Below, one piece after another: positions 9,041 to 32,000 of a DNA stretch of 32,000 nucleotides (position 1 is the stretch's first letter; every line of letters starts with the position of its first letter). Under the pieces are notes generated by a model. The model had not been told where the DNA came from and did no database searches. It saw nothing but the letters and a program-made list of their open reading frames with translations. The position numbers and the translations under genes are program-made. Origin of the DNA: Halorhodospira halophila SL1 (GTDB lineage Bacteria; Pseudomonadota; Gammaproteobacteria; Nitrococcales; Halorhodospiraceae); assembly GCF_000015585.1 (NCBI RefSeq), contig NC_008789.1:2070001-2102000 (forward strand). Direction: 5' to 3'.

Positions 9041-9078
9041 AGGAAAACCTCCAGCTTGGTCCCTGCTCAGGGCGCCGG

Positions 9079-10867: not shown

Positions 10868-11059
10868 TTGCGTTATGGACCCGGACCTGCCGCCGGCAGC
10901 GTGGCGCTGTTCTTGTTGGTGCTCTTCCTGCTGGCCACGCCGTTCACCGACTGGTGGATGGAGGCCCGGCCGCCGTGGTACGTCCCGTACCTCGGCTGGG
11001 CGGTGGTGATCGCATTGGGTGGCTGGTTGATCGAACGGGGAACCGGGCGTGACCTTTGA
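10868..11059 (+). CDS. Small 2-TM membrane protein preceding the SSS-kinase (CbrX-like position)
   Basis: TTG start in the ORF track; an in-frame GTG at 10901 is an alternative. Two hydrophobic helices (ALFLLVLFLLATPF and WAVVIALGGWLI). Its stop (11057-11059) overlaps the kinase GTG start at 11049 by 11 nt. A similar ORF precedes the second SSS-kinase. Confidence 0.45.
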   Translation: MRYGPGPAAGSVALFLLVLFLLATPFTDWWMEARPPWYVPYLGWAVVIALGGWLIERGTGRDL

Positions 11060-14006: not shown

Positions 14007-14011
14007 CCCCA

Positions 14012-15382: not shown

Positions 15383-15435
15383 CGTGTTACCTTTCGACAC
15401 ACCTGGAAGCGACGGGACGTGCAACCTCGTAACAC
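15364..15435. promoter_or_regulatory. Cluster of TGTTACC/GGTAACA half-sites upstream of acs (candidate enhancer-binding-protein sites)
   Basis: GGTAACA at 15365-15371, TGTTACC at 15385-15391, GTAACAC at 15429-15435. GTGTTAC (15384-15390) and GTAACAC form a 7-bp inverted repeat with a 38-nt spacer. The same heptamer recurs at 21329-21370. Confidence 0.4.
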
Positions 15436-15549
15436 TCTGCTCTGCTATCCTCCCCGCGTGACCGGAGCGCCGGAGCGCGGGCACTTACGGCCGGGTCGTC
15501 GCCAGGAGACGGCCCGCTTGACCGATCAGAAATCCGGGAGGAGAGAACG

Positions 15550-17487
<1,938 letters not shown>

Positions 17488-17496
17488 ACGGGGTAC

Positions 17497-17524
17497 GGAC
17501 GAGGCCGGGAGACCGGCCTCGTCC
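17497..17524 (+). terminator. Stem-loop immediately downstream of acs
   Basis: GGACGAGGCCGG-gaga-CCGGCCTCGTCC is a perfect 12-bp GC-rich stem, 10 nt after the acs stop. There is no clean U-tract (the following sequence is cccggatgtgcgtttcc). Confidence 0.6.
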
Positions 17525-17623
17525 CCCGGATGTGCGTTTCCGCATCGCGTGTTTGAGGGTTCAGGGTTCGGTCGATGGGCATTCGACCCCCTGTGTACGG
17601 ATCACCGACAACCAGAGAGCCTC

Positions 17624-17818
17624 ATGTCACCCTGGATCTATTTCCTCGTCACATTGGCGATTGCCTGGCACGGGCTGACCTACAAGGACCCGGAAGGCGA
17701 TCACCCGACGGTGCACCTGCTTTTCGGCTGCATCGCGCTGATCTTCGCGATGCGCTTTCTCTTCGTGGACATCCTGGGGCTGCCGATCCTCGGCGTCGCA
17801 CCGCTGGACGCGGGCTGA
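17624..17818 (+). CDS. Possible small (64 aa) 2-TM membrane protein
   Basis: Internal ATG of listed ORF 17549..17818. MSPWIYFLVTLAIAWHGL..HLLFGCIALIFAMRFLFVDILGLPILG is hydrophobic. The RBS is weak and there is no recognisable family. Confidence 0.35.
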   Translation: MSPWIYFLVTLAIAWHGLTYKDPEGDHPTVHLLFGCIALIFAMRFLFVDILGLPILGVAPLDAG

Positions 17819-17881
17819 GCTGAGCTCCGGGGGCCACGGACCATCCCACAGGCCGCTTGTCTGCCCTTGCAATGAGGGTAA

Positions 17882-17899
17882 GCGGGGTGAACACCCCGC
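17882..17899. terminator. Short GC hairpin between convergent genes
   Basis: GCGGGGT-gaac-ACCCCGC is a 7-bp stem. It lies 64 nt after the stop of the + small ORF and 49 nt after the stop of the - TPR gene. Confidence 0.3.
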
Positions 17900-17947
17900 C
17901 CGGCGGGATCCGCAGCGGTCAAGACCGCACCAAGACGACGCCCTCGC

Positions 17948-18547
17948 CTAATCGGGGCGCTGGGTGTAGGCCCTCTGCTGGCTGTCTTTTTCCGGGTCGG
18001 AGAGCTTACGCTCATCTTCCGGCAGCGCCAGCTGCTCCTCGAGGTAGTCAGCGCGTTCCGAGATGCTCGGCTGGCCGTCCGGTCCCATGTGGAAGAAGCG
18101 GGTCAACCACCCCGGGCCGTCATCCACCGCCTCGTCCAGTTCCGCCGCCTTACGGTAGTCCGCAAGCGCCTGCTCGTGTTCACCGAGCCGGTCGTAGGCG
18201 ATCCCGCGGTTGGCGTAGGCGCCGGCGAACTCCGGATCGATCAGTTCGATGAACCGGTCGTACACGTGGATGGCGCGTTCCAGCTCGCCTAGCTCAAGCA
18301 GCGTCGTGGCCTTGCCCAGGTGAGCGTAACGGTGCTCCGGCGCCTCCTCCAGCGCCCGGGTGTACTGCTCCAGGGCGCGATCGTAGCGCCGATCCTGGAG
18401 GGCGCGATCGCCGGCGATGGTCTTGACATCGCCCGGCCCCCGATCCGGTGCCACCCCCTGATACAGGGCGTAGCCCAGCGGCAGGAGCGCCGCCACGATG
18501 GCGATGGCCACCCAGGTCCGGTACCCCCGCTCGGTAATCTTGATCAT
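17948..18547 (-). CDS. Membrane-anchored TPR-repeat protein
   Basis: 199 aa with an N-terminal TM (WVAIAIVAALLPLGYALY). TPR-like repeats: YDRALEQYTRALEEAPEH.., AIHVYDRFIELIDPEFAGAYANRGIAYDRLGEHEQALADYRKAAELD. ATGA overlap with the upstream small gene (18544-18547). Confidence 0.8.
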   Translation of the reverse strand: MIKITERGYRTWVAIAIVAALLPLGYALYQGVAPDRGPGDVKTIAGDRALQDRRYDRALEQYTRALEEAPEHRYAHLGKATTLLELGELERAIHVYDRFIELIDPEFAGAYANRGIAYDRLGEHEQALADYRKAAELDEAVDDGPGWLTRFFHMGPDGQPSISERADYLEEQLALPEDERKLSDPEKDSQQRAYTQRPD

Positions 18548-18780
18548 TGCAACACACCTAACGTTGCCGAATTCAGGAAGAAAGAGAACACCGGCAGGAT
18601 GACGGTGGCCAGCACACGGGCCCGCCGTTTCTGCCCGGCCAGTTCCTCTTCAGACAACTCCCGGTCCAGTTTCCGCTGCAGCCGCCGCACGCTCAACACC
18701 CAGATCCACTGACTGACCGGATAGAAGAGAATGACGACCAGCAGAACGACCCAGAACAGGAATTGGGTTGTGGGATCCAT
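18544..18780 (-). CDS. Small (78 aa) 2-TM membrane protein
   Basis: MDPTTQFLFWVVLLVVILFYPVSQWIWVLSV, then a charged linker, then VLATVILPVFSFFL. Translationally coupled to the TPR gene and sits downstream of the symporter. Confidence 0.6.
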   Translation of the reverse strand: MDPTTQFLFWVVLLVVILFYPVSQWIWVLSVRRLQRKLDRELSEEELAGQKRRARVLATVILPVFSFFLNSATLGVLQ

Positions 18781-18815
18781 ATCGCTCGCTCGAATGAAAC
18801 CGCTTGAAGGGAGGG

Positions 18816-18844
18816 GCGCAGGGGGCCGGAACGACCCCCTGCGC
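18816..18844 (-). terminator. Intercistronic stem-loop between the symporter and the small membrane gene
   Basis: GCGCAGGGGG-ccggaacga-CCCCCTGCGC is a perfect 10-bp stem, 35 nt downstream of the symporter stop (18879). No U-tract, so it could be a partial terminator or an RNA processing/stability element. Confidence 0.35.
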
Positions 18845-18878
18845 TACCCGGTTGCAGTGGTCGATGACCACCGACCCG

Positions 18879-21170
18879 TTACGGACGGCTCACGTCGTAG
18901 CGGGCCTTGCCCTGATCCTCGTCGAAGAGGACCTCGATTTCCTTCTCGGGCACGGTGCTCATCTCACACTTGTAGCAGGTGAACCACATCATGTAGATAC
19001 CGATCACCCACCACAGCAGCTGCCAGACCACGATGGACGGCAGGCCGAGGAACCACCAGGTATCGGGGTTGGTCGGATCACCGAAGACCCAGTTGCCCAG
19101 CAGGGCGCCCGGACCGAAGGCGAAGATCCACCAGCCGATGACGATGGTGAAGGCGATCGGGATCAGGTGGCGCTTCTCGGCCGGCAGTGACGCATGCTCG
19201 CGAAGGAAGGCGTGCACCGTCATGCGGTGATCGTAGTCTTCCTTGTTGTTCTGCGTCATCGCCGAGACGACCACGGCCACCAGGGCGTTAAGCACCAGGC
19301 CCCACCCGGCAGAGTGGATGGTCAGCGGCCAACGGCCCCAGGGCACGTCGACGCCCGCCGCCGCCAGCAGGTCGATGCCGATGTTCTCGGTCATCAGCAC
19401 GGCAACGATGCCAACGCCCAGCCCCCAGACCACACCCGGACGGGTAAGCCAGGGGAAGAAGCAGATGGCGGCCAGCGGCACCCACATCTGCGTACCCATG
19501 GCGGTGGCCAGACCGCCGAGCAGCACCAGGGCGTCGGTGGTCACCGTCGCCACGGTCAGGGCCGCAAGCACCAGGATGGTGACGAAGACCCGGCCCGCCA
19601 CCACCTGGGCCTGGTTGCTGGCACTGGGCATGATGTAGCGACGCAGCAGGTCACGGGTAAACATGCCACTGGTGGTGGACATGTACGCCGCGCCGGTGGA
19701 CTGCATGGCCGCCAGGGCACAGACCGCCAGCAGGGCCGCCAGCCACGGCGCCGCCGCCTCCAGCATGTTCAGCAGCTGGGGCACAAGCTCGCTGTCACCG
19801 CCCCGATCCAGGGACAGGTCCAGCCAGGCCCGCTCGAGATCGCCCGGCAGAGCTGCCAGCCAGTCCGGATCCATGTTGCGCGGATCCTCACCGATGGACA
19901 GCGCCGCCAGACCGGCCGCGATGACCTGCTCGACCTCCTGACGACTGAGTTCCGGATGCTCGGCCTGGATCATGCCGCGCTGCATGACCGCGGTGGGTAC
20001 CAGCGGGCTGAGATCCATGCCGTCCAGGGACTCGCCGGCGTCCAGGCGCTCGCGCACCTCGTCCACCAGCCCTTGGTGCTCCTCGGAGGCCTCGAACAGC
20101 GTCCGGTACTCGGCCAGCTGCTCACCGTGCTCGTCGGAGAAGATGTCCTTGGCGAACTCGGTGTTGGCCCCCAGGCCGTGGGTGGCCATCGCCTGGATCG
20201 CCAGGAAGGTGAACATCAGGGCACCGACGCCCACCGGGGACATCCAGGTCTGTTGCGGCGCAAACGGACGCGGGTTCTGGTTCGAGAACGCCCACATGGT
20301 GAACGACGGGGAGGCCATGATGCCGCCCAGCGCCAGCATGTAGGTGATGTTCATGACGCCGGTCCAGACACCGCCCTGGGCGTTGGCCGCGGCACCGACC
20401 CACTGGATGGCACCCGGGATGGCGACATAGCCACTGGCACCGCTATCCCCCGGCACCATGCCCGGCGAGACCTCACCCGCACCACCGGTGGCGGTCTCCC
20501 ACTCGACCAGGCCGGCAATCACGTGCGTGAAGTTGTTCCAGCCGCCGATGTAGTAGAGCGTCACGACGCCGATGACGAAGATGCCCACAATGAGCAAAAC
20601 AGCCTGCGCCGCGTCCACGTACGCCACGGCGCGCAGACCGCCCGAGGCCACGTAGAACAGCACCACCGCGGACAGCAGCCACATGCCGATCTCGACGCCC
20701 ATCCAGCCGTCGGTGAGCACGTGGAACAGGAAGCCCGAGGCGCGCAGCTGAATCCCCAGGTACGGCACTGCGAAGATCAGCGCCACAATGAGGATCAGGA
20801 TGCGGATCGAGTCCGTCCGGAAGTAGTCCGCGAACATCTCGCCCGGCGTGACGTAACCCCAACGCTTGCCAATCATCCATTGGCGCTTGAGGAACAGCAT
20901 GCCGGTGAACGGGATGCAGATGGAGTAGAACGAGGCGTAGGCGTACTGCAGGCCGTCCTCGTAGATCAGGCCCGGGTGTCCTACGAACGTCCACCCTGAG
21001 AACGATGTGGCCGTTGCCGCCAGTATGAAGACCCACATACTGACGGAGCGCCCGGCCACGAAGTAGTCGCTGGCTGTGCGCGACCAAAGGTATCCCTTGA
21101 TACCCCAGAAGATGCAGTAGCCCCAGTACAGGCCTACAAACACCAACAGCCATATGGCCATAGCTGACAT
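18879..21170 (-). CDS. Sodium:solute symporter (SSS) family transporter, atypically long (763 aa); likely monocarboxylate/acetate permease by context
   Basis: SSS-type N-terminus (YFVAGRSVSMWVFILAATATSFSGWTFVGHPG; GGLRAVAYVDAAQA) and a late SSS helix (ALAAMQSTGAAYMSTTSG). Has a ~140-aa hydrophilic acidic insertion (aa ~335-474) and a ~120-aa C-terminal extension with 2 extra TM helices. RBS GAGGGGGAG lies upstream. The substrate is inferred only from the acs/sigma54 context. Confidence 0.9.
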   Translation of the reverse strand: MSAMAIWLLVFVGLYWGYCIFWGIKGYLWSRTASDYFVAGRSVSMWVFILAATATSFSGWTFVGHPGLIYEDGLQYAYASFYSICIPFTGMLFLKRQWMIGKRWGYVTPGEMFADYFRTDSIRILILIVALIFAVPYLGIQLRASGFLFHVLTDGWMGVEIGMWLLSAVVLFYVASGGLRAVAYVDAAQAVLLIVGIFVIGVVTLYYIGGWNNFTHVIAGLVEWETATGGAGEVSPGMVPGDSGASGYVAIPGAIQWVGAAANAQGGVWTGVMNITYMLALGGIMASPSFTMWAFSNQNPRPFAPQQTWMSPVGVGALMFTFLAIQAMATHGLGANTEFAKDIFSDEHGEQLAEYRTLFEASEEHQGLVDEVRERLDAGESLDGMDLSPLVPTAVMQRGMIQAEHPELSRQEVEQVIAAGLAALSIGEDPRNMDPDWLAALPGDLERAWLDLSLDRGGDSELVPQLLNMLEAAAPWLAALLAVCALAAMQSTGAAYMSTTSGMFTRDLLRRYIMPSASNQAQVVAGRVFVTILVLAALTVATVTTDALVLLGGLATAMGTQMWVPLAAICFFPWLTRPGVVWGLGVGIVAVLMTENIGIDLLAAAGVDVPWGRWPLTIHSAGWGLVLNALVAVVVSAMTQNNKEDYDHRMTVHAFLREHASLPAEKRHLIPIAFTIVIGWWIFAFGPGALLGNWVFGDPTNPDTWWFLGLPSIVVWQLLWWVIGIYMMWFTCYKCEMSTVPEKEIEVLFDEDQGKARYDVSRP

Positions 21171-21240
21171 TCGTGTCTCCCCCTCACATTTCTTGAGTTA
21201 TGAGGTGTTGCAATCCCCCCGCAGGGGTCGGCGGTCTCTA

Positions 21241-21256
21241 GCGAAAACCGTGCCAC
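21241..21256 (-). promoter_or_regulatory. Sigma54 (-24/-12) promoter for the symporter operon
   Basis: The minus strand reads TGGCACGGTTTTCGCT, i.e. TGGCAC-N5-TCGC, with GG and GC at canonical spacing (consensus TGGCACG-N4-TTGCW). The -12 GC lies ~70 nt upstream of ATG 21170. An NtrC-type activator is encoded in the window. Confidence 0.7.
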
Positions 21257-21317
21257 CCGCCCCAGAGCGCTTAACCCACTGATGGGCCTTGGCCCCGCAG
21301 CACGACCATGCGTCCAC

Positions 21318-21372
21318 GCGTTACCTTCGGTAACAAGCCACGTTCCCAGGGGTAACACCAGTGGGTAACACC
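21318..21372. promoter_or_regulatory. Upstream activator-site cluster in the divergent intergenic region (TGTTACC-type motifs)
   Basis: Palindrome GTTACC-ttc-GGTAAC at 21320-21334. A 10-nt direct repeat GGGTAACACC sits at 21350-21359 and 21363-21372. The cluster lies 64-116 nt upstream of the -24 GG of the minus-strand sigma54 promoter. Confidence 0.55.
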
Positions 21373-21447
21373 CGCGCAGCGGTTTGTCTCTGCCGCCGGG
21401 GTTGGGCATGATCAAAGCGAGCAGACCCCCGCACAGGAGAAGCGCCG

Positions 21448-23370
21448 ATGGCCGCCGGAGCGAACAGCCCCGGGGAGCAAAACCCGTCCGCCGACACGCT
21501 GGACGTCGGTCGCCTGGCCGAGAACGAGGTCTTCCGCAACCTTGATGAACAGTTACTGCGCGCACTGCTGGCGCGTGGCAGGGTTCATCACCTGGAAAGC
21601 GGCGACGTGCTCTTCCACCTCGGCGACCCGGACCGCGACACCCTCTATATTCTCTACGAGGGGCGGGTCGAGCTGCGCGACGCCCACAACGTGGTCACCG
21701 TCCGCGAGCCGGTGACCCTGCTCGGGCTGTCGAGCTACTTCGACGACGAGCCCTACACCCTCACCGCCCGGGCCACCCGGCCGTCGCTGGTGGTCGGCAT
21801 CCCCTTCGAGGATGTGCGCACCCTCGAGCGCGAACACCCGCCCCTGGCCGACGCCTTGAGCCGCATTATCGCCGACCGGATCCGCGCCAACTCCTGGCAG
21901 CATCGCGGCAGCCCCACCGGTGCCCTGTCGCAGCCGGCGCGCACCGCCATGTCCACGCCGCTGACCTACCAGCAGCCGGACTGCAGCCTGGGCGAAGCCT
22001 TCCGCTTCATGGACGAACGCAAGATCGGCAGCATCGGCGTGCTCGACGAGGCCGGCGGTCTGGTCGGCCTGGCCACGCTGCGCACCATCGGTCGCGCCAT
22101 CTTCACCCGGGGGCTGACCCCCGAAGCCTCCATCGTCGAGGCCGCCGAGCGGATCACCGCCATCGGCCCCGAGACGCCGCTATCCGAGGCCAAGGACATC
22201 CAGGCGCGGGAGAACGTCAAGTACCTGGTGGTCATGGACGGCACACGGCCGGTGGGCATGCTCTCGCAGTCGAACATGCTCCAGGCGATCATGGCCCAGC
22301 AGACCGTCATGCGCGAGCGCATCAACCGGGCCACCAGCATGTCGGAGCTGCAGCAACTCGCCGGCGAGGTGGGTTACGTGGCGCGCGAAGCCTGGAACAA
22401 CAACCGCGAGGCCAGCCGCGCCACCTATCTACTGAGCGAATTCCACCTGCAGCTCCAGCGCCGCTGCATCGACCTGGTGGTGGATGAACTCCGCAGCGAA
22501 GGCTGGGGCGAGGCGCCGCGTCCCTACGCCCTGCTGATCCTCGGTTCGCTGGCGCGCCGCGAGGCGCTGATCAACCCGGACCAGGACAACGCCATGATCA
22601 TCGGCGACTGTCCCCGGGGCGGCGACGACCCCCGCCCCCTGGACGAAACCGAGGCGGAGTGGTTCGCCACCTTCGCCGAGCGAGTGAACATCCGCCTCGA
22701 CGAGCTCGGCTACGAGTGGTGCAAGGGCGATATCATGGCCCGCAACCCGGAGTACCGTCACCCGCTGGAGCGCTGGCGGCAACAGTTCCGCTACATGGCC
22801 CGGCACCCGAACAGCACCTCGGCGCGCTGGTGCAACATCTTCCTCGACTTCGAGCTGCTCTACGGCGAACAGGGCCTGGTGACCGAGCTCTGGGACTTCG
22901 TCCTGGCCACCCTCAAGGAACAGCCCAAGCTATTGCGCTTTATGACCGGTGATGACGCCGAGGGCCAGCCGGCGGTGGGGCTGTTCAACCGGCTGATCCG
23001 CTCGCGCCGCGGCGACAATGGCAACGGCTGCGTGGACATCAAGCGCAAGGGGCTGCGCATCATCGCCAACGGGGCGCGCATCTATGCCCTTTCGGCCAGT
23101 GTGCGCGAAACCAACACCGTGGCCCGGCTCAAGGGCCTTCGCCGCGAGGGCGTGCTGACCAGCGAGATGGTCGACTCGGTCCTCACCGGCCACGAAGAGC
23201 TGCTCGATCTGCTGCTGACCCACCAGATCGAACAGCATCAGGCGGGCACCGCTCCGGACAAGTACATCGACCCCGAGGAGCTGGACGACCTGACCCGCCA
23301 GTCCCTGGCGACGAGCATGAAAGCGGTCAAGCGCTTCCAGGACCGCGTACAAGGCGTCTTCGGCCTTTAG
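21448..23370 (+). CDS. cNMP-binding + tandem CBS + DUF294-type putative nucleotidyltransferase (with DUF294_C-like substrate-binding domain)
   Basis: 640 aa. Cyclic-nucleotide-binding-like N-domain (VFRNLDEQLLRALLARGRVHHLESGDVLFHLGDP..LYILYEGRVEL). Two CBS motifs (..KIGSIGVLDEAGGLVGLATLRTI.. and ..VKYLVVMDGTRPVGMLSQSNML). Pol-beta-type NTase signature LGSLARREALINPDQDNAMII (GS at 22543-22548, DQD at 22579-22587). Confidence 0.9.
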   Translation: MAAGANSPGEQNPSADTLDVGRLAENEVFRNLDEQLLRALLARGRVHHLESGDVLFHLGDPDRDTLYILYEGRVELRDAHNVVTVREPVTLLGLSSYFDDEPYTLTARATRPSLVVGIPFEDVRTLEREHPPLADALSRIIADRIRANSWQHRGSPTGALSQPARTAMSTPLTYQQPDCSLGEAFRFMDERKIGSIGVLDEAGGLVGLATLRTIGRAIFTRGLTPEASIVEAAERITAIGPETPLSEAKDIQARENVKYLVVMDGTRPVGMLSQSNMLQAIMAQQTVMRERINRATSMSELQQLAGEVGYVAREAWNNNREASRATYLLSEFHLQLQRRCIDLVVDELRSEGWGEAPRPYALLILGSLARREALINPDQDNAMIIGDCPRGGDDPRPLDETEAEWFATFAERVNIRLDELGYEWCKGDIMARNPEYRHPLERWRQQFRYMARHPNSTSARWCNIFLDFELLYGEQGLVTELWDFVLATLKEQPKLLRFMTGDDAEGQPAVGLFNRLIRSRRGDNGNGCVDIKRKGLRIIANGARIYALSASVRETNTVARLKGLRREGVLTSEMVDSVLTGHEELLDLLLTHQIEQHQAGTAPDKYIDPEELDDLTRQSLATSMKAVKRFQDRVQGVFGL

Positions 23371-23453
23371 AATAAGGGCGTGCGCCGCCGACGCCAGGCG
23401 TGTCGACGGCGACCGAGATCCGGCCCAATAACCGAGAGGAGGCGGCCACGAAG

Positions 23454-23831
23454 ATGAGCCAAGAGATCCTGATCGTGGACGATGAGGACAACATCGTCCT
23501 GTCCCTGGAGTTCCTGATGAAGCAGGCCGGTTTCGAGGTGCGCACCGCCCAGGACGGCGAGCAGGCCATCGAAGCCCTCGAGGCACGCATCCCGGACCTG
23601 GTCCTGCTCGACGTGATGATGCCCCGCAAGGACGGCTACGAGGTCTGCCAGGAGATCCGTCAGCGCAGCGAGTGGGCGCACCTGCCGGTGGTCATGCTGA
23701 CCGCCAAGGGACGTGACGTGGAGCGCGAGAAAGGACTGGCCATGGGCGCCGACGACTACATCACCAAACCGTTCTCAACCCAGGAGGTGGTGGAAACGGT
23801 CCAGCACATCCTCGCCAACGGGGCACAGTAA
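23454..23831 (+). CDS. Stand-alone response-regulator receiver (CheY-like)
   Basis: 125 aa from ATG 23454, with RBS GAGGAGG at 23436-23442. [13 protein letters not shown].., phospho-acceptor context [14 protein letters not shown], plus VVMLTAKG and YITKPF. No output domain. The ORF track's GTG 23400 start adds 18 non-conserved residues. Confidence 0.9.
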
Positions 23832-25954
23832 TGGCCAGCGCCATGGCACGTCGCCGGTTGAAATTCTGGGCACCGGCGCTGGTCCTGCTGCTGCTGATCG
23901 CCGCTGCCCTGGCCACCGTCGGCTACCTGACCCTGGGACACGTTCCCGAGGGACCGGAGCGCGCCAATGCGCTGCTCGCCCTGGGAGGCGCCGGCGCGGT
24001 GCTCATCGGCGCCACCGTGGCCATCTGGATCCTCCTGGACGCCACCGTCATCCGCCCCCTGGGCGCGCTGGCCCGCGGGGCGTCGATCATGGCCCACTCG
24101 AACCCGGCCCACGAACTGGAGATCCCGAGCATGCACCTGCTCGGCGAGCTCCCGGAGAGCCTACAGACGCTGGGCAGCAACCTCTATGAGACCCGGCGCG
24201 AAGTGGCCAAGGCCCTGGGCTCCGGCGCCCAGGGGGTCGAGAACCAGAAGACGCGGCTGGAGATCGTTCTGCGCGAGATCCAGCAGGGGGTCATCGTCTG
24301 CGACACCGAGGGCCGGGTGCTGCTCTACAACCCGGCCGCCGGCGAGATCCTGCGCAGTGATGCACTGGGTCTGGGGCGCTCCATCTACGACGTGCTGGCC
24401 CGCTCGGCGGTGGACCACACCCTGGAGATGCTCCAACACCGCCTGGCCATCGCCGACGACCACACCGTGGCGGAAAACCGCGCCGAATTCGTCTGCGCGA
24501 CGGTGGATGACGGCGCCCTGCTGCACTGCCGGATGAGCCTGCTCCCCTCCTCCAGCCCCCTGCGCTCGGGGTTCGTGCTGACCATCGAGGACATCACCCG
24601 CAAGATTGAAGGCGTAGCCCGCCGCGACCACGCCCTGCGCACCGCCGTGGAGGCCCTGCGCCCGCCGCTGGCGAACCTGCGCGCCGCCGCCGAGAGCCTC
24701 GGCCAGGGCGACGAGGCCATGGCCCGCGAGCAGCGCCAGTCGTTCGAGACGCTCATGGTCCACGAAAGCCGGGAGCTGAGCCGACGCTTCGAGCGCATGG
24801 CCCGGGAGACCCACCGACTCGTCTCGGCCCCCTGGACCATGGCGGACATCAGCAGCGCGGACCTATTGGCCAGCGTCCTGCGCCGCCACCCGGAGGGATT
24901 GCCGAAGGTCGAGGTGGTCGGCATCCCGCTGTGGATGCACGCCGAGAGCCACTCCATCGGCCTGGTACTGGAGCACATGCTGCGCCACCTGCGCGGCGAA
25001 CTCGGCATCGAGCAGATCCGCGCCGAGCCCCTGATGGGGGATCAGCGGGTGTATCTGGATCTCTCCTGGCAGGGCCCACCGATCCCGCCGGATCAGCTCG
25101 AGACGTGGCTGGACGAGGAGCTGCCCGAGGCCACCGGGCAACTGACCCCGCGCGGGGTGCTGGAGCGCCACGACAGCGTCGCCTGGAGCCAGATACAACC
25201 TCGCTGCGAAGGACGCGCCCTGCTGCGCATCCCGGTGCCGCTATCGCGGCGCCAGTGGGAGCAGCCCGGCGAGCGCCTGCCACCGCGGCCGGAGTTCTAC
25301 GACTTCTCGCTGGCCGACCAGGCCGCCGATCAGGGCGAGCTGCTCGATCGCCCCCTGGCCCAGCTATCATTCGTCATCTTCGATACCGAGACCACCGGAC
25401 TGGCCCCCTCGGAAGGCGACGAGATCATCTCCATCGCCGGGGTACGCATGGTCAATGGCCGCATCCTCGAGGGCGAGTGCTTCGAGCAGCTGGTCAACCC
25501 CGGGCGGCCGATCCCCAAAGCGTCGATCAAGTTCCACGGCATCCGCGACGAGATGGTCGCCGACAAGCCGGGGATCGCCACGGTGCTGCCGCAGTTCAGC
25601 GCCTTCGTCGGCGATTCCGTGCTGGTCGCCCATAACGCCGCCTTCGACATGAAGTTCATCCGCCTCAAGGAAGGTCAGTGCGGCCTGAAGTTCGAAAACC
25701 CGGTGCTCGACACCCTGCTGCTGTCGGTCTTCCTGCACGATCACACCCCTGAGCACACCCTGGAGGCCATCGCCAACCGCCTGGGGGTGGAGATCAGCGG
25801 CCGCCACACGGCGCTGGGCGACACCCTGGTCACCGGCGAGATCTTCGCGCAGATGCTGCCGCTGCTCGAGGAGCGCGGCGTCACCACCCTGCGCGATGCG
25901 ATCAACGCCTCCGAACAGATGGTCGAGGTCCGCAAGCAGCAGGCCCAGTTCTAA
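23831..25954 (+). CDS. Membrane sensor (2 TM-HAMP-PAS-degenerate histidine-kinase-like core) fused to a DEDDh 3'-5' exonuclease (DnaQ/RNase T-like)
   Basis: 707 aa. The start overlaps the receiver stop (TAATG at 23829-23833). PAS: [32 protein letters not shown]. DHp-like helix [19 protein letters not shown] lacks His. The exonuclease domain spans aa 512-707 (nt ~25364-25951) with Exo[11 protein letters not shown], Exo[14 protein letters not shown] and Exo[15 protein letters not shown]. Confidence 0.88.
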
Positions 25955-25955
25955 C

Positions 25956-26153
25956 GTGACGGGACGGCGCAGTGAACGACTCATCGCCCTGGCCCTGCTG
26001 GGGATGGTGCTGTTCAACTATCCGGTGCTATCGCTGTTCGCAGTGGACGGCAAGGTGCTGGGGATGCCGGTGTTCTACGCCTACTTCTTCACCGTCTGGG
26101 CCGGCCTGATCGCGGCGGTGGCCCGGCTCAACCGGGCCACCGCCCAGGGGTAA
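25956..26153 (+). CDS. Small 2-TM membrane protein preceding the second SSS-kinase (CbrX-like position)
   Basis: GTG at 25956, 1 nt after the exonuclease stop and in frame with listed ORF 25896..26153. VTGRRSERLIALALLGMVLFNYPVLSLF..GMPVFYAYFFTVWAGLIAAVARL gives two hydrophobic helices. It ends 5 nt before the kinase GTG at 26159. Confidence 0.5.
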   Translation: MTGRRSERLIALALLGMVLFNYPVLSLFAVDGKVLGMPVFYAYFFTVWAGLIAAVARLNRATAQG

Positions 26154-26158
26154 GCGCG

Positions 26159-28957
26159 GTGCTGCCGGCGTGGACCATCCTGCTGGTTTCGGCGCTCTAC
26201 GTCGGGCTCCTGTTCGCCGTCGCCTATACGGCGGACAAGCTCGGCGATCGCGGCCTGTCGCTGGTCAACAACCCGTACGTCTACACCCTGTCCATCGCCG
26301 TCTACTGCACGGCCTGGACCTTCTACGGCAGCGTCGGCCTGGCGGCCGAACAAGGGCTGGCCTTCCTGACCATCTACCTCGGCCCGACCCTGATGGCCAT
26401 CGTCTGGTGGGTGGTGCTGCGCAAGATCGTGCGCATCAGCAAGCTCTACCGGCTCACCTCCATCGCCGATTTCATCGCCGCCCGTTACGGCAAGAGCATG
26501 CTCCTCGGCGGCCTGGCGGCATTCATCGCCCTAGTCGGCACCACCCCGTACATCGCGCTGCAACTCCAGGCGGTCTCCTCGAGCTTCGACGTCCTGCTCC
26601 ATTTCCCGGACATGGAGGCGGTCCAGGCGGGCAGTGCCGGGCTTCTGGACGACAAGGCGCTCTACGTGGCGGCCCTCCTGGCCCTGTTCACCATCCTCTT
26701 CGGCACCCGCCACATCGACGCCACCGAACGCCTGGAGGGCATGGTGGTGGCGGTGGCCTTCGAGTCGGTGGTCAAGCTGGTCGCCTTCCTGGCGGTCGGG
26801 ATCTTCGTCACCTTCGTCCTCTTTGCCGGGCCCGTGGAGCTCTTCCGCGAGGCAGCGGCCTCGCCGGCCATCGCGGAGCTCGGCCTGCTCACCGGACTAC
26901 CCGGCGGCTACCAGAACTGGATCGCCATGCTGGCGCTCTCGGCCCTGGCGATCCTCTTCCTGCCGCGGCAATGGCAGGTCAGCGTGGTGGAGAACGTCAA
27001 CGAGGACCACATCCGCACGGCCTCCTGGCTCTTCCCGCTCTATCTACTGGTCATCAACCTGTTCGTCCTGCCCGTGGCCCTGGCGGGGCTGCTGTTCTTC
27101 GGCGACGAGATCCCCGGCGACGACTACGTGCTGGCCCTGCCCCTGGCCGTCGATCAGGGGCTGCTCGGCCTGCTGGTCTACATCGGCGGCTTCTCGGCGG
27201 CCACCGGCATGGTGATCGTCGCCACCATCGCCGTGGCCATCATGGTCAGCAATGACATTGTGACCCCGGCGCTGCTGCGCCTGCGCCGCTTTCACGCCCG
27301 GGGGCGCCACGATCTGTCGAGGCTGATCGTCACCATCCGGCGCCTGGTGATCTGCGCGATCCTCGCCCTCGGCTACGCCTACTACCTGCTCATCGCCGAC
27401 ACCCACGCCCTGGTCTCCATCGGGCTGATCTCCTTTGCCGCGGTGGCGCAGTTCGCGCCGGCGGTCCTGCTCGGGCTGTTCTGGAAGGGGGCGAGCCGGC
27501 GCGGCGCCCTGGCCGGGCTGGTGGCCGGGTTCCTGCTCTGGGCGTACACCCTGCTGCTGCCTTCGCTGGCCGAGGCGGGGCTGCTCGGCGAGCGGCTGCT
27601 CACCGACGGCCCGTGGGGCATTGAATGGCTGCACCCCTACGGCCTGTTCGGTATGGAGGGCATGGACCCCATCGCCCACGCCTTCTTCTGGACCCTGCTG
27701 GCCAACCTCGGGCTGCTCCTCGGTGTCTCGCTGTTCGATCGCCAGGGCGACATGGAACGCATCCAGGCCACGCTGTTCGTCGACGTCTTCCTGCGCTCGG
27801 AGCGCGACGCCCGCTTCTGGGAGGGCACCGCCACCGTCGGCGACTTGCAGGACCTGCTCGGCCGCTTCCTCGGCCCGGAGCGGGCCGCCGGGGTCATCCG
27901 TGAGTACGGCGCCCACCGCGGACGTCCGCTGGATGAGGCCGAGCAGGCACAGCCCGAGCTGGTCAATCAGGTCGAGCGCCTGCTCGCCGGCTCCATCGGC
28001 TCCGCCTCGGCCCGGGTGATGGTGGCCTCCATCGTCAAGGGCGAGGCGCTCTCCTACGAGGGGGTCATGGAGATCCTCGACGCCACCTCGCGGGCCATCG
28101 AGTACTCGCGGCGGCTGGAGGAGAAATCCCACGCCCTGGAGAGCGCCACCGAGGAGCTGCGCGCCGCCAACGAGCGGCTCAAGGAGCTGGACCAGCTCAA
28201 GGACGAGTTCGTCTCCATGGTCAGCCACGAGCTGCGCACGCCGCTGACCTCGATCCGCGCCTTCGGCGAGATCCTACTCAACAACCCGGAGATGGACGCC
28301 GATCAGCGCCGCGAGTTCCTGGAGGTGGTCGTCCGCGAGAGCGAGCGGCTGACCCGGCTGATCAACCAGGTACTGGACCTGTCCAAGATCGAGAGCGGCT
28401 CGGCCCAGTGGCAGCTGGAGGACGTGGATCTCTCGCGCCTGGCCCGGGAGGCGGCGGAGTCCACCCAGCAGCTGTTCACCGACCGGCAGACGCAGCTGCA
28501 CATCGAGATCGCCAGCGACGACAACGCCATCAAGGGCGATCCGGACCGCCTGATGCAACTGATCATCAACCTCCTGTCCAACGCCGCCAAGTTCACCGAG
28601 CCCGGCGAGGGGCAGGTGTGGCTGCGCCTGGAGAAGGGCCGCGGCGACACCCTGCGCCTGTCGGTCACGGATAACGGACCGGGGATCAGTGCCGAGGATC
28701 AGCGGCGGATCTTCGACAAGTTCCACCAGATCTCTCAGCAGCAGGCCGGCAAGCCCAAGGGCAGCGGCCTGGGGCTGGCCATCTGCCGGCTGATCGCCGA
28801 CGCCCACTGGGGCACGCTCTGGGTCGACAGCGAGCCCGGCGCCGGCGCCAGCTTCGTCTGCAAGCTGCCCCGCGCCGGCGGCGAGCACTGCAACGTCACC
28901 GGGTACGTGGCGTTCTCCGAGCGCGGCCCGGCACCCCCTGAGGAGGAGCCGTCGTGA
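26159..28957 (+). CDS. SSS(SLC5)-STAC sensor histidine kinase (CrbS/CbrA-type paralogue, no PAS or receiver seen)
   Basis: 932 aa. The N-terminus (MLPAWTILLVSALYVGLLFAVAYTADK) is paralogous to the kinase at 11049. STAC-like segment: ELVNQVERLLAGSIGSASARVMVASIVKG. A coiled coil follows, then H-box FVSMVSHELRTPLTSIRAF. ATPase boxes are NLLSNAAKFT, DNGPGIS and GSGLGLAICRLI. Confidence 0.9.
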   Translation: MLPAWTILLVSALYVGLLFAVAYTADKLGDRGLSLVNNPYVYTLSIAVYCTAWTFYGSVGLAAEQGLAFLTIYLGPTLMAIVWWVVLRKIVRISKLYRLTSIADFIAARYGKSMLLGGLAAFIALVGTTPYIALQLQAVSSSFDVLLHFPDMEAVQAGSAGLLDDKALYVAALLALFTILFGTRHIDATERLEGMVVAVAFESVVKLVAFLAVGIFVTFVLFAGPVELFREAAASPAIAELGLLTGLPGGYQNWIAMLALSALAILFLPRQWQVSVVENVNEDHIRTASWLFPLYLLVINLFVLPVALAGLLFFGDEIPGDDYVLALPLAVDQGLLGLLVYIGGFSAATGMVIVATIAVAIMVSNDIVTPALLRLRRFHARGRHDLSRLIVTIRRLVICAILALGYAYYLLIADTHALVSIGLISFAAVAQFAPAVLLGLFWKGASRRGALAGLVAGFLLWAYTLLLPSLAEAGLLGERLLTDGPWGIEWLHPYGLFGMEGMDPIAHAFFWTLLANLGLLLGVSLFDRQGDMERIQATLFVDVFLRSERDARFWEGTATVGDLQDLLGRFLGPERAAGVIREYGAHRGRPLDEAEQAQPELVNQVERLLAGSIGSASARVMVASIVKGEALSYEGVMEILDATSRAIEYSRRLEEKSHALESATEELRAANERLKELDQLKDEFVSMVSHELRTPLTSIRAFGEILLNNPEMDADQRREFLEVVVRESERLTRLINQVLDLSKIESGSAQWQLEDVDLSRLAREAAESTQQLFTDRQTQLHIEIASDDNAIKGDPDRLMQLIINLLSNAAKFTEPGEGQVWLRLEKGRGDTLRLSVTDNGPGISAEDQRRIFDKFHQISQQQAGKPKGSGLGLAICRLIADAHWGTLWVDSEPGAGASFVCKLPRAGGEHCNVTGYVAFSERGPAPPEEEPS

Positions 28958-29937
28958 CCCGCCCCGAGGCCGCCGCCTTCCGACCCGCCTGGTGGCTGCC
29001 CGGCCGCCACGCCCAGACCGTCTTCCCGGCGCTGCTGCGCACCCCGCCCCGGCCGCCGCTGACCCCGGAGGTCTTCGAACTGCCCGACGGCGACTTCCTG
29101 GAGCTGGCCTGGGGACCGCCCGGCCAGGGGCTCGCGATCATCGGCCACGGGCTCGGGGGGAGCAGCGACTCGGCCTACGTCCGCGGGGTGGTGGCCGAGC
29201 TGGCCCGACGCGGCATCGGCTCGGTGGTGATGCAGTCGCGGGGGGCCGGGCGGCACCCCAACCGCCATCGGCGTTCGTACCACGCGGCCGCCTGGGACGA
29301 TCTGGAGGCCGTGGTCGCCGGCCTGGCCGAGCGCGACCCCCACCGCCCCCTGGCGGTGGTGGGTTTCTCGCTGAGCGGCTCGATGCTGCTCAACTGGCTG
29401 GCCGAGCGCGGTGACACCCCGGTGGCACGGGCGGTGGCCGTCTCGGTGCCGTTCGAGCTGGACCGCTGCGCCGACGCCCTGGAGCGGGGCTTCGCGCGTG
29501 TCTACCAGGCGTACCTGCTGCGCCGGTTGCGGGTCATGGCCGCGAACAAGTTTGCCGCCCGGGACGACAGCCCCGTCCCGGCGGAGCGGATCCGGCGCAT
29601 CCGCCGCCTGCGCGAGTTCGACAACCTGCTCACCGCGCCCCTGCACGGCTTCCGCGACAGCGCCGACTACTACCGGCGCGCCAGCTGCCGGCAGCGGCTC
29701 AGCGCCATCCGCCAGCCGACCGCCCTCCTCCACGCCGCGGACGACCCCTTCGTGCCGCCGGAGACGATCGCGGAGACCGCCGAGCTCGGCCCGGGTGTCA
29801 CCCTGGAGCTGCAGCGCCACGGCGGGCACGTCGGTTTCGTCGAGGGGCGCCAGCCCGGACGCCCGGGCTACTGGCTGGACGGGCGGATTGCCGACCTCCT
29901 CGAGGCGGCCCTGGGCAACCCGCCCGCCGGCGGCTAG
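28954..29937 (+). CDS. Alpha/beta-fold hydrolase, YheT/ABHD1-3-like
   Basis: 327 aa. The GTG start overlaps the kinase stop (GTGA at 28954-28957). N-terminal WWLPGRHAQTVFPALL is typical of the YheT family. Nucleophile elbow GFSLSGS, acid HAADDPFVP, His GGHVGF. Confidence 0.85.
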   Translation: MTRPEAAAFRPAWWLPGRHAQTVFPALLRTPPRPPLTPEVFELPDGDFLELAWGPPGQGLAIIGHGLGGSSDSAYVRGVVAELARRGIGSVVMQSRGAGRHPNRHRRSYHAAAWDDLEAVVAGLAERDPHRPLAVVGFSLSGSMLLNWLAERGDTPVARAVAVSVPFELDRCADALERGFARVYQAYLLRRLRVMAANKFAARDDSPVPAERIRRIRRLREFDNLLTAPLHGFRDSADYYRRASCRQRLSAIRQPTALLHAADDPFVPPETIAETAELGPGVTLELQRHGGHVGFVEGRQPGRPGYWLDGRIADLLEAALGNPPAGG

Positions 29938-29950
29938 CCCGGCACCCGGC

Positions 29951-32000
29951 TCAAAAGCGCAGGGTGCCGGTCACCCGAACGTCCCGGCCGGGCTCGTCGC
30001 GAATCTGCCACTCGTCGTTCTCCTCCACCGCCAGGGAGGTGTGCTCGGCGTACTGCTCGTCGAAGAGGTTGTTCACCGCCAGCGCCAGGGTCAGGCGGTC
30101 GTCGGCCCACGGCTGCCACTCGGCCTGCACGTCGTGGAGTTGGTAGCCGTCGCGCTCCGGCTCGTCGTCGGGGACGTCGGTGTGATCCCCCACCCAGGTG
30201 AGCGTGTAGCCCAGGGTCAGGGTCTCGTGGGCCGCCCAGCGCTGATCGAAGACCAGACGGTCACCGCCGCCCCCACCCAGGCGCCGGATCACCCCCACCG
30301 GGTCGCCGTCGTCGTCCACGGCCTCGGCGCTGAGGAACGAAAGCCGGGCGTCGTAGGGGCCCACGCCCCAGGCGGCGCGCAGTTCGTAGCCGCGCAGGCG
30401 GACCGGATCGGGGCGGTTGCGGACGCCCCCAACCAGCGGGGCGTCCTCATCCCAGAACGCGTCATGTCGCCTATCGGGCGGCAGGTTGTGCTGGTGCGGT
30501 GTGCCCCACGGGTCATCCCGCTCAACACTGTTTTTGATCCGCGTCTCGAAGAGCGTCGCCTCGAAGTCGAAGCGGTCCCGGGCCGTGATCAGATCCCGCC
30601 CCTGGTAGCGCAGGCCGCCCTCGCGCCGGCGGGACTCCTCGGCCTCGAACGGCTCGCCGTCATTCAGATTGGTCTCTTCGTCGTCGATGTAGGCCAGCCA
30701 GCCGATCGGCAGGATCCCGGCGCCACTGACCGCCTCGCCGTAGCCGGCGAAGGCGGTCCACCCGGCAGTCAGGTCGTACTCCGCACTGAAGTTGGGCGAG
30801 ACGGCATCGCCTTGGAGGGTCTCCTCCTGCAGGTCGGTGACATAGTCGTCGTAACGCAGCCCGGCGGAGAGGCGCAACCGCTCCCAGGCCATGCGGTTCT
30901 GCACGAAGGCGCCGAAGTTGCGCGACTGGTGACTGAGCCTCGAGCCGCCTCCGTGGGGGTCGCTGCGCCCGTCCTCGGTGTAGTAGTCGAAACCGGCGGT
31001 GAGCCGGTGACGGGTCGGCCCGGCGTCCAGGGTGAAGGTGTTGCGCAGGTCGCCGCCTTGCTCGACGGCGCGGGTGGTGGTGTTGTCGTCCTGGCGTTCC
31101 AGGCGGTTGTCGTTGCGGTAGACCCGGGCCTGCCAGTCCACGTGGGGGTCGGCCGGGCGGTAGCGGTGCTCGGCGGTCCAGGTGTCGCGGCGCTGCTCCT
31201 GGCCCACCGGGTCTTGGCGTGTCGTCTCGCTCGGATCACCGAAGTCACTGCCCCAGGAGCCGTAATGGTGATCCCCCTCGAAGGTGTTGCGCTGCACGCC
31301 GAGACGCAGCTGATGGCCCGATGCCGGCACGCGGCTGATGCGCGCCAGGTAGTCGCGATCGCGCCCGCCGGAGTACGGCATGGTGTCGCCGCCGCCGACC
31401 CGGTAGTCGTCCCGGTTGACCGCACCGATATGGGCCAGGGCGCCCCAGTCGCCGCCCAGCCGGCCGAAGGCGGTGGCCGAGCCGCGCTCGGCCTCGTCGG
31501 CGCTGGCGTAGCCGGCGCGCAGGCGGGCCCCAGTCTCTTCGTCGGGGTCGAGCAGATCCTGGGCGTCCACCGTCTCGAAGCGCACCGAACCGCCCAGCGC
31601 ACCGGGGCCCTGGTCCGCCGCCGGACGCGGGTCGAGATCGGCCGCCCGCAGCAGATCCGGGTCCAGACCGGTGAGGCCGCCGCGGTGCTGGTGGAGGTCC
31701 CGCCCCTGGCGGGCCCCGTCCACGGTGACGTTGAGGTTGTTGGACTCGACACCGCGCAGGTAGAGCCGCTGCGCGTTGCGGCTGCCACCGCCGACCCCGG
31801 CCGAGGCCTCGCCGCGGAAGATCTCGGCGCTGCTCGAGGCCTGGCGGCGCTGCAGGGCTTCGCTGGCCACGCCGCGGCCCAGGGGATCGCCGCCGGCCTC
31901 GATGCGCACCGGCGAGAGGCTGGTGGAGGACGCGTGCTCATCGCCCTCCTCCGCGGCCCCGGCCGGTACCGAGACCGCCGCAGCCAGCAGGGCGCCTAAC
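29951..32000 (-). CDS. TonB-dependent outer-membrane receptor, 5' end beyond the window
   Basis: The track starts it at GTG 31909, but the frame stays open to nt 31999. There it reads LGALLAAAVSVPAGAAEEGDEH.., a signal-peptide end, so the true start is past 32000. Plug motif LYLRGVESNNLNVTVDGARQG. C-terminal NNLFDEQYAEH...DVRVTGTLRF ends in Phe. Confidence 0.85.
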   Translation of the reverse strand, partial: LGALLAAAVSVPAGAAEEGDEHASSTSLSPVRIEAGGDPLGRGVASEALQRRQASSSAEIFRGEASAGVGGGSRNAQRLYLRGVESNNLNVTVDGARQGRDLHQHRGGLTGLDPDLLRAADLDPRPAADQGPGALGGSVRFETVDAQDLLDPDEETGARLRAGYASADEAERGSATAFGRLGGDWGALAHIGAVNRDDYRVGGGDTMPYSGGRDRDYLARISRVPASGHQLRLGVQRNTFEGDHHYGSWGSDFGDPSETTRQDPVGQEQRRDTWTAEHRYRPADPHVDWQARVYRNDNRLERQDDNTTTRAVEQGGDLRNTFTLDAGPTRHRLTAGFDYYTEDGRSDPHGGGSRLSHQSRNFGAFVQNRMAWERLRLSAGLRYDDYVTDLQEETLQGDAVSPNFSAEYDLTAGWTAFAGYGEAVSGAGILPIGWLAYIDDEETNLNDGEPFEAEESRRREGGLRYQGRDLITARDRFDFEATLFETRIKNSVERDDPWGTPHQHNLPPDRRHDAFWDEDAPLVGGVRNRPDPVRLRGYELRAAWGVGPYDARLSFLSAEAVDDDGDPVGVIRRLGGGGGDRLVFDQRWAAHETLTLGYTLTWVGDHTDVPDDEPERDGYQLHDVQAEWQPWADDRLTLALAVNNLFDEQYAEHTSLAVEENDEWQIRDEPGRDVRVTGTLRF

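Follow-up and report, generated by a model that had tools for sequence, protein, structure and literature searches.

In the 32,000-nucleotide (nt) stretch of the Halorhodospira halophila SL1 genome analysed here (contig NC_008789.1, positions 2,070,001 to 2,102,000; hereafter the window), one gene encodes a 707-amino-acid (aa) protein in which a DEDDh 3'-5' exonuclease is joined to a module with the fold of a histidine kinase (coordinates in Table 1). The catalytic residues of the kinase fold are lost, yet the fold appears, from the family alignments, to be under purifying selection. Pseudo-histidine kinases and DEDDh exonucleases are each already known; we found no description of their fusion. 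The gene follows that of a single-domain response-regulator receiver and stands close to a gene for a histidine kinase fused to an SLC5 sodium/solute symporter. The reading that we favour, if only slightly, is that the pseudokinase resembles DivL in reading the phosphorylation state of the receiver and that it gates the fused nuclease, which would make the nuclease a post-translational output of an acetate- or short-chain-acid-linked kinase.

An initial annotation of this DNA, made from the letters and their translations, had proposed the domain order of two transmembrane (TM) helices, HAMP-like linker, PAS domain, DHp-like helix, CA-like region and DEDDh exonuclease. We recovered this order with Pfam, with Foldseek and with a full-length AlphaFold2 model built on a 35-sequence family alignment (mean predicted local distance difference test score, pLDDT, of 80). 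In the N-terminal half, the model places helices at residues 2-35, 42-89 (TM2 continuing into the first helix of the HAMP-like linker) and 107-126, followed by the PAS domain at 153-254. In the C-terminal half, it places the two DHp helices (256-291 and 299-327), an alpha/beta domain at 338-471 with pLDDT ~90, a poorly ordered linker and the exonuclease at 513-706. Both the model and the translation leave about 6-12 residues between TM1 and TM2, and the protein is predicted to be devoid of a periplasmic sensor domain. No match to the Pfam HAMP model was obtained at E ≤ 0.1 in the 707-aa protein, and the label 'HAMP-like' rests on the predicted fold and on the alignment to the WalK and NblS kinase models of NCBIfam, which span aa 46-294 and 57-323. 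Among PDB structures, histidine kinases rank first in the Foldseek search with the full model: WalK 9a5d is matched with E 1e-17 over 465 columns, and VicK 4i5s, YF1 4gcz and ThkA 3a0r are also found. Low pLDDT values occur at aa 481-488, beside the RPEFYDF motif of the linker.

To relate the DHp/CA region to genuine kinases, the family alignment of aa 255-480 (62 sequences) was compared by hhalign with the cores of 64 genuine SLC5-fused kinases from the same loci, giving a probability of 98.7% and E 3.9e-16 over 204 columns. An AlphaFold2 model restricted to DHp-CA (aa 255-477; pLDDT 90, predicted template modelling score 0.71) matches solely cytoplasmic cores of the histidine-kinase type over 221-249 columns in Foldseek, including an EnvZ chimera, WalK/YycG, HK853 with or without RR468, DivL, ChpT and RetS. 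As predicted, then, the protein contains a DHp four-helix-bundle hairpin and an alpha/beta CA fold that are homologous to those of real kinase cores. Neither HisKA nor HATPase_c rises above the Pfam threshold, the best HisKA match having E 0.14 over aa 272-313 when the excised middle region is searched.

The hhalign alignment sets the H-box VEALRPPL opposite SHELRTPL, with Glu274 (codon GAG) on the His; the N-box EHMLRH opposite NLLSNA, without its Asn; the G1 box WQGPPI opposite DNGPGI, with Trp413 on the adenine-binding Asp; and the G2 box EATGQL opposite GSGLGL. The ATP lid, i.e. the segment between G1 and G2, is 11 residues shorter than in the SLC5-kinase cores. From its own alignment with the H-box of the downstream kinase, the initial annotation had put a glutamate at codon 274 (24650-24652) in the place of the phospho-acceptor His; in the CA-like part it had found no N-box Asn and no DxGxG box, and had seen WQGPPIP where DNGPGI would be; the codon reads as it said, and the profile alignment and the family counts given below lead to the same assignments.

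We then counted residues in 270 sequences aligned to the family hidden Markov model (HMM), 261 of which could be scored at the acceptor column. The residues at position 274 are E in 149, D in 44, N in 18, Q in 15, R in 13, A and T in 6 each, K and V in 3 each, S in 2, and I and G in 1 each, so that Glu or Asp makes up 74%; His is found in 0/261 aligned sequences and in none of 80 genomic loci. W413 is kept in 266/269 family sequences and G415 in 268/269, and the N-box columns hold H/F/Y and R/Q, with Asn in only 1-5 of about 270 sequences. Loss of the His and of the G boxes thus extends over the whole family, the comparison of orthologues that the initial annotation had called for. It had named as evidence to the contrary a conserved His elsewhere in the DHp helix together with recognizable N, G1 and G2 boxes; we looked for this combination and did not find it. 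H267, which precedes E274 by two turns and shares its helix face, was considered as an alternative acceptor and rejected, because only 5/35 sequences have His there; conserved His residues were found at H102, H374 and H447, all outside the DHp. A search for members that are still genuine kinases returned none among 120 word-index matches, 150 cluster representatives and the 80 loci. Betaproteobacterial members are somewhat more similar to kinase cores, yet they too have Glu and no G boxes. Since the acceptor His and the ATP-binding residues are missing, the protein is predicted to be unable to autophosphorylate or to relay phosphate.

Kinase-motif loss appears to be a trait of the family and not a case of local gene decay, because about 490 clusters share the architecture and the loss is found throughout. 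The clusters come from an exhaustive phmmer search with aa 255-507 as the query against 1.84 billion cluster representatives (50% identity clusters), which gave 491 clusters at a threshold of E ≤ 1e-3, of which 262 reach E ≤ 1e-10; their length is nearly always ~700 aa and the match lies at residues ~250-500. Relatives found by a word-index search number 683; of the 120 listed, nearly all have a length of ~700 aa and PAS and RNase_T annotations, and the closest among the matches listed, 94% identical, is from H. halophila. Scanning one genome per species returned the 80 loci used throughout, which cover Gamma-, Beta- and Alphaproteobacteria, Magnetococcales, Nitrospirota, Chloroflexi, Acidobacteriota and Desulfobacterota (Desulfosarcina), i.e. 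at least six phyla. Databases label the members 'exonuclease/PAS domain-containing', 'DNA polymerase III subunit epsilon' and, once, 'histidine kinase'. The family is conspicuous in wastewater taxa that store acetate or volatile fatty acids (Ca. Accumulibacter, Ca. Competibacter, Dechloromonas, Zoogloea, Propionivibrio and Thauera), and it is also found on megaplasmids of Paracoccus denitrificans and Cupriavidus necator. One burkholderialean locus (L033) carries two receiver and pseudokinase-exonuclease pairs, at 7465-10004 and 14965-17550.

The exonuclease domain has an intact active site, and nuclease activity is predicted from it. Pfam RNase_T (PF00929) matches aa 515-672 at 164/164 model positions (E 3e-38, 132.3 bits against a cut-off of 24). 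The PDB matches include the exonuclease domain of Thermotoga PolC (2p1j, E 3e-29) and E. coli epsilon, and Foldseek superposes the domain on the PolC and epsilon exonucleases with a root-mean-square deviation of 1.6-2.0 Å. The catalytic pentad, composed of D518 and E520 in Exo I, D606 in Exo II, and H659 and D664 (H-x4-D) in Exo III, is invariant in 62/62 sequences.

Within the DHp-CA region, conservation is highest at aa 276-290, the 15 residues that follow the lost His, with a mean entropy of 1.25 bits against 2.2-2.7 bits elsewhere. The segment includes A281 (84%), N282 (70%), A285 (91%) and A286 (92%), which correspond to His+7, +8, +11 and +12, presumably the receiver-contact positions of HK853. 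Because this is the most conserved stretch of DHp-CA, the surface used by real kinases for catalysis and for docking the receiver appears to be still under strong selection in the pseudokinase. The initial annotation had held it probable that the scaffold kept a receiver-docking surface, and the conservation maximum at aa 276-290 speaks for this.

We next considered the genes around the pseudokinase-exonuclease. As the initial annotation had stated, Pfam identifies a receiver gene immediately upstream and a genuine kinase gene two genes downstream. The partner receiver consists of Response_reg only, without an output domain, and its D9, D10, D53, T/S83 and K105 are conserved in 70/70 orthologues. 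The SLC5 kinase has intact H, N, G1 and G2 boxes, does not contain a receiver domain and is 33% identical to the second SLC5 kinase of the window. The receiver stop and the pseudokinase start overlap by 1 nt (TAATG), and a GAGGAGG ribosome-binding site is present. Over the 80 loci, the receiver is encoded directly upstream of the pseudokinase in 72, the SLC5 kinase gene adjoins the pair on one side or the other in 64, and a DUF294 gene lies within 8 kilobases (kb) in 54. The functional link to the receiver and the kinase that had been proposed is thereby strongly supported by synteny and gene overlaps. Plasmid 1 of P. denitrificans PD1222 carries the same five genes in one overlapping string, annotated in RefSeq, in order, as 'putative nucleotidyltransferase substrate binding domain-containing protein', hypothetical (81 aa), 'ATP-binding protein', 'response regulator' and 'exonuclease domain-containing protein'; the receiver and pseudokinase genes overlap there by 4 nt. 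The PD1222 proteins have the accessions WP_011751328-332. The best family models are RpaB, WalR and PhoB for the receiver and WalK and NblS for the pseudokinase. Because these are cognate lineages, they are compatible with descent of the two proteins from an ancestral kinase-regulator pair.

Table 1. Features of the window that concern the pseudokinase-exonuclease and its surroundings.
Feature	Position (nt)	Strand	Basis and remarks
Second SLC5-PAS-HisKA-HATPase kinase, 985 aa	11049-14006	+	Same window
NtrC-type sigma-54 response regulator	14012-15382	+	Same window
Acetate-CoA ligase acs	15550-17487	+	Same window
Sodium/solute symporter, 763 aa, divergent	18879-21170	-	Pfam SSF; NCBIfam VC_2705-family
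cNMP-binding, 2xCBS, DUF294, DUF294_C putative nucleotidyltransferase (PP_0354-like)	21448-23370	+	Pfam; first gene of apparent operon
Single-domain response-regulator receiver	23454-23831	+	125 aa from ATG 23454, open reading frame (ORF) opens at GTG 23400; Response_reg E 4e-32
Pseudo-histidine-kinase/exonuclease gene	23831-25954	+	707 aa plus stop; ORF list, Pfam, AlphaFold2 model, ~700-aa homologues
TM helices, aa 12-33 and 46-68	23864-24034	+	AlphaFold2 helices; hydrophobic stretches in translation
HAMP-like linker, aa 69-126	24035-24208	+	AlphaFold2 helix-connector-helix; WalK/NblS model alignment
Cytoplasmic PAS domain, aa 148-257	24272-24601	+	Pfam PAS_4 E 1.3e-8, 35.5 bits vs cut-off 23.1; AlphaFold2 five-strand core
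DHp-like helical hairpin, aa 256-327, degenerate H-box	24596-24811	+	hhalign to kinase cores; AlphaFold2 helices 256-291, 299-327
GAG codon, Glu274 at phospho-acceptor His position	24650-24652	+	Sequence; hhalign column
CA-like (HATPase_c-fold) domain, aa 335-475, without N, G1, G2 boxes	24833-25255	+	hhalign; Foldseek
Trp413 codon, in place of G1 Asp	25067-25069	+	hhalign
Linker, aa 476-510	25256-25360	+	Alignment; AlphaFold2 pLDDT
RPEFYDF motif, near-invariant, inside linker	25286-25306	+	F489, Y490, D491, F492 invariant in family alignment
DEDDh 3'-5' exonuclease domain, aa 511-707	25361-25951	+	Pfam RNase_T; PDB and Foldseek matches
Small membrane protein ORF, 65 aa	25956-26153	+	GTG 25956 start; between exonuclease and kinase genes
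SLC5 (sodium/solute symporter)-fused histidine kinase	26159-28957	+	Pfam SSF; HisKA E 9e-21; HATPase_c E 2e-30
Alpha/beta hydrolase gene, overlaps kinase stop	28954-29937	+	Pfam Abhydrolase_1

The string of genes is free of gaps from the DUF294 gene to the alpha/beta hydrolase gene. The small membrane ORF in it has no Pfam or NCBIfam match; in at least 29 loci, tblastn finds it immediately before the SLC5 kinase gene. The alpha/beta hydrolase has no tblastn match across the 80 loci, and its membership of the system is uncertain. A scan of 17400-30200 found no sigma-70-like sites and no convincing terminators between genes, an outcome that is consistent with 21448-29937 forming one operon and is otherwise uninformative. 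Upstream of the DUF294 gene, at 21320-21372, an inverted repeat GTTACCttcGGTAAC is followed by two direct copies of GGGTAACAC, a candidate operator of the cassette. On the minus strand, at 21240-21255 and ~70 nt upstream of the symporter start, we noted a sigma-54-type -24/-12 element, TGGCACGGTTTTCGCT, with one mismatch to TGGCAC-N5-TTGCW, a possible target of the NtrC-type regulator encoded in the window. In the symporter itself, SSF is matched in two stretches. The protein has an acidic hydrophilic insert at roughly aa 337-460, ~125 aa long, which is skipped by the tblastn matches in two other loci (L007 and L049). A CHASE2-domain adenylate/guanylate cyclase encoded at 4161-6098 (minus strand) is a possible source of cyclic nucleotide for the cNMP-binding DUF294 protein. 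Elsewhere in the window, a 733-aa ORF without Pfam match (6839-9040, minus strand) adjoins the gene of a TraF_2-like outer-membrane protein at 9079-10467.

Two particular arrangements concern the DUF294 gene and the exonuclease. In one cluster, protein P0171 (1154 aa) has the pseudokinase-exonuclease in frame with CBS-DUF294-DUF294_C; its RNase_T domain covers model positions 1-107 only and Exo III is lost. It is either a natural fusion or the deletion product of two neighbouring genes, and, given the loss of Exo III and the single cluster, we treat it as an anecdotal Rosetta-stone case. In loci of the Dechloromonas/Azonexus type (L045, 10033-13489), two DUF294 genes are followed by a 218-aa exonuclease-like ORF that does not have the Exo I D-x-E.

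Features of the locus also suggest a link to acetate and other short-chain acids. At a distance of ~4 kb from the cassette, the second SLC5 kinase, the NtrC-type regulator and acs (11049-17487) make up an acetate module like that of CbrA/CbrB or CrbS/CrbR, and the divergent symporter is probably the transport partner of the locus. When the ORFs encoded within 8 kb are clustered, 23/80 loci have an SSS transporter and 9/80 have acs. In Pseudomonas putida, PP_0354 (cNMP-CBS-nucleotidyltransferase) and PP_0353 (RNase_T exonuclease) form an operon that is directly targeted by the SLC5/STAC kinase system MxtR/ErdR (= CrbS/CrbR) and depends strongly on it; for mutants, an effect on fitness at low acetate has been reported (PMC9927547; bioRxiv 10.64898/2026.09.07.749794), and the P. 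aeruginosa homologues PA3232-PA3233 are located with actP (PMC9765439). DUF294_C has been classed with the C-terminal domains of the protein nucleotidylyltransferases GlnD and GlnE (PMC3710099).

In the mechanism that we propose, the SLC5 kinase would signal the supply of a monocarboxylate, for example acetate, or its flux, and would phosphorylate the small receiver. The receiver would dock on the conserved DHp helix of the pseudokinase, reversing the usual flow of information in the manner of DivK~P and DivL, and the resulting DHp/CA rearrangement could be relayed through the RPEFYDF linker to switch the membrane exonuclease on or off. We infer the gating step, i.e. that receiver docking or heterodimerization alters nuclease activity. 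At a weaker level, the nuclease may remove what the GlnD/GlnE-like DUF294 protein adds, which would be a 3' nucleotide tail or a protein-linked nucleoside monophosphate (NMP). A write/erase pair acting on RNA or protein is plausible, because release of 5'-NMP from a 3' end chemically resembles NMP removal from tyrosine. If the nuclease does reverse DUF294, then the DUF294/exonuclease pair, which Pseudomonas controls at the level of transcription through the related kinase MxtR/CrbS, has in the cassette a post-translational counterpart. The complete chain, from transporter-kinase to stand-alone receiver, dead kinase and membrane-tethered exonuclease, with DUF294 and the nuclease as a write/erase pair (RNA 3' tailing and trimming or protein nucleotidylylation) that tunes acetate and short-chain-acid metabolism without transcription, is a tentative proposal that we hold to be rather unlikely in its full extent.

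Several observations weigh against the proposal. The alpha-1 helix of the receiver is almost invariant over ~70 pairs, too invariant for an analysis of receiver/DHp covariation. The acidic residue at the His position might repel phospho-aspartate, and binding could therefore favour the unphosphorylated receiver or miss the canonical site. Conservation does not extend to the phosphatase motif of HisKA proteins, E/D-x-x-T/N after the His, so that nothing points to remaining catalysis on the receiver. The exonuclease domain is ~32% identical to a short DUF294-linked exonuclease (from L019) against 38% to the PolC exonuclease in the Foldseek-aligned region; as it is no closer to the short DUF294-linked enzymes than to PolC, its orthology with PP_0353 is not established. 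Mutants of PP_0353 and PP_0354 have mild propionate and pyruvate defects only (PMC9927547). In addition, eight of the 80 loci do not have a receiver gene upstream, and the pseudokinase has a HAMP-like and PAS input of its own that could suffice for its regulation.

These last two points lead to the alternative to which we give appreciable weight while thinking it improbable, namely that signalling runs forward: the HAMP/PAS part would respond to a cue from the membrane or the cytoplasm, the DHp-CA remnant would serve as a dimeric transmission element or scaffold, and the receiver would act elsewhere, on the DUF294 enzyme, on another target or as a phosphate sink. Conservation of the PAS domain and the HAMP-like linker throughout the family fits this scheme, and many non-kinase outputs are driven by HAMP/PAS coiled-coil signalling. 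It leaves unexplained, however, why a full CA-like domain and the constraint on the H-box persist after the loss of catalysis, and why the receiver is coupled to the pseudokinase in 72/80 loci across phyla. A different partner is the SLC5 kinase itself, which the pseudokinase might bind through its DHp, by heterodimerization or otherwise, and tune in the way of RetS and GacS, the exonuclease being brought into a complex with the kinase instead of being controlled by the receiver. In favour of this, the two membrane-anchored proteins have neighbouring genes in 64/80 loci, the homology of their DHp helices is clear, and RetS is among the structural matches; but many core positions of the DHp are occupied by different residues in the two families, and in L003, L010, L011, L014 and L049 the SLC5 kinase is separated or absent while the receiver is kept, and we regard such a role in kinase modulation as doubtful.

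The strong conservation of the H-box around a position that is acidic in 74% could also be taken to mean that the protein is an unusual phosphotransfer enzyme, either an acyl-phosphate carrier on Glu/Asp274 or a receiver phosphatase. We find this very improbable: residual phosphochemistry on residue 274 is unlikely because a quarter of the members (~26%, with N, Q, R, K, A, T, V, S, I or G) are not acidic there, no ATP-binding residues are left, and the phosphatase motif is not kept. Hardly any credence is given to a function against phages or mobile elements, in which the nucleotidyltransferase and the DEDDh nuclease would form a defence module. PADLOC does return domain-level matches, to DEDDh (CRISPR-associated) and to the cNMP-binding domain shared with Pycsar effectors, but these concern generic domains without any system-level match; the cassette is chromosomal or megaplasmid-borne, vertically widespread and linked to transporter-kinases, acs and SSS transporters, and its GC content has no island signature.

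Two-component systems are textbook transcription switches, and CbrA, CrbS and RpuS signal through DNA-binding regulators; to our knowledge, nuclease outputs are essentially uncharted. Full-text literature searches found nothing on the fused family, on its cassette or on a nuclease as a two-component output, in agreement with the initial annotation, which knew of no characterized regulated exonuclease of this architecture. Should the pseudokinase read the receiver as proposed, it would be a natural and widespread case of a kinase scaffold recycled as a phospho-receiver receptor and wired to an enzyme, a new type of two-component output, and the cassette would constitute a fourth branch of SLC5/STAC transceptor kinases, one that signals post-translationally. 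The function of the conserved DUF294-nucleotidyltransferase/exonuclease pair of the acetate (CrbS/MxtR) regulon in Pseudomonas and Vibrio has resisted genetics, and the cassette offers a new way in, with members in the tractable organisms P. denitrificans PD1222 and C. necator; the write/erase reading, if true, would give PP_0354/PP_0353 of that regulon a function.

Compared with known systems, the exonuclease domain shares its fold and its five catalytic residues with the DnaQ/PolC-type DEDDh proofreading exonucleases; unlike these, it stands outside any polymerase and is membrane-tethered behind a signalling module. With PP_0354/PP_0353 (PA3233/PA3232), the cassette has in common that both Pfam families are co-encoded and tied to an SLC5/STAC kinase and to acetate, propionate and pyruvate metabolism (PMC9927547, PMC9765439, PMC5715377, bioRxiv 10.64898/2026.09.07.749794). 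PP_0353, however, is a short stand-alone exonuclease, whereas that of the cassette is joined to a pseudokinase sensor, and control of the Pseudomonas pair is transcriptional, via a DNA-binding regulator, whereas here the partner receiver has no output domain. Like the CbrA, CrbS and RpuS SLC5/STAC cassettes, the genes are encoded with a symporter-fused kinase; unlike them, the partner receiver carries no DNA-binding output of the NtrC or LuxR type. The WalK/VicK/NblS/PhoR-type HisKA kinases, to which aa 46-475 are most similar by HMM and by fold, have the same order of TM, HAMP (in the present protein HAMP-like), PAS, DHp and CA; they are active, with His, N, G1 and G2 boxes and without an exonuclease domain. 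RetS, NifL and ChpT, all three among the structural matches, reuse the DHp/CA fold for protein-protein regulation or phosphotransfer; RetS and ChpT keep a His or a different chemistry, NifL keeps nucleotide binding, and we know of none among them that carries a nuclease. The closest parallel in the proposed function is DivL of Caulobacter crescentus (4q20, among the top Foldseek matches of the pseudokinase), whose kinase module has come to serve for sensing whether DivK is phosphorylated (PMC4211667) and which likewise combines PAS with a DHp-CA histidine-kinase fold in which the acceptor His is replaced, by Tyr in DivL. Relative to DivL, the ATP site here is more thoroughly gutted, with W for the G1 Asp and a shortened lid, and the protein has a membrane anchor of two TM helices and a HAMP-like linker; and whereas the output of DivL is allosteric control of a separate kinase, CckA, that of the present protein would be the exonuclease fused to it.

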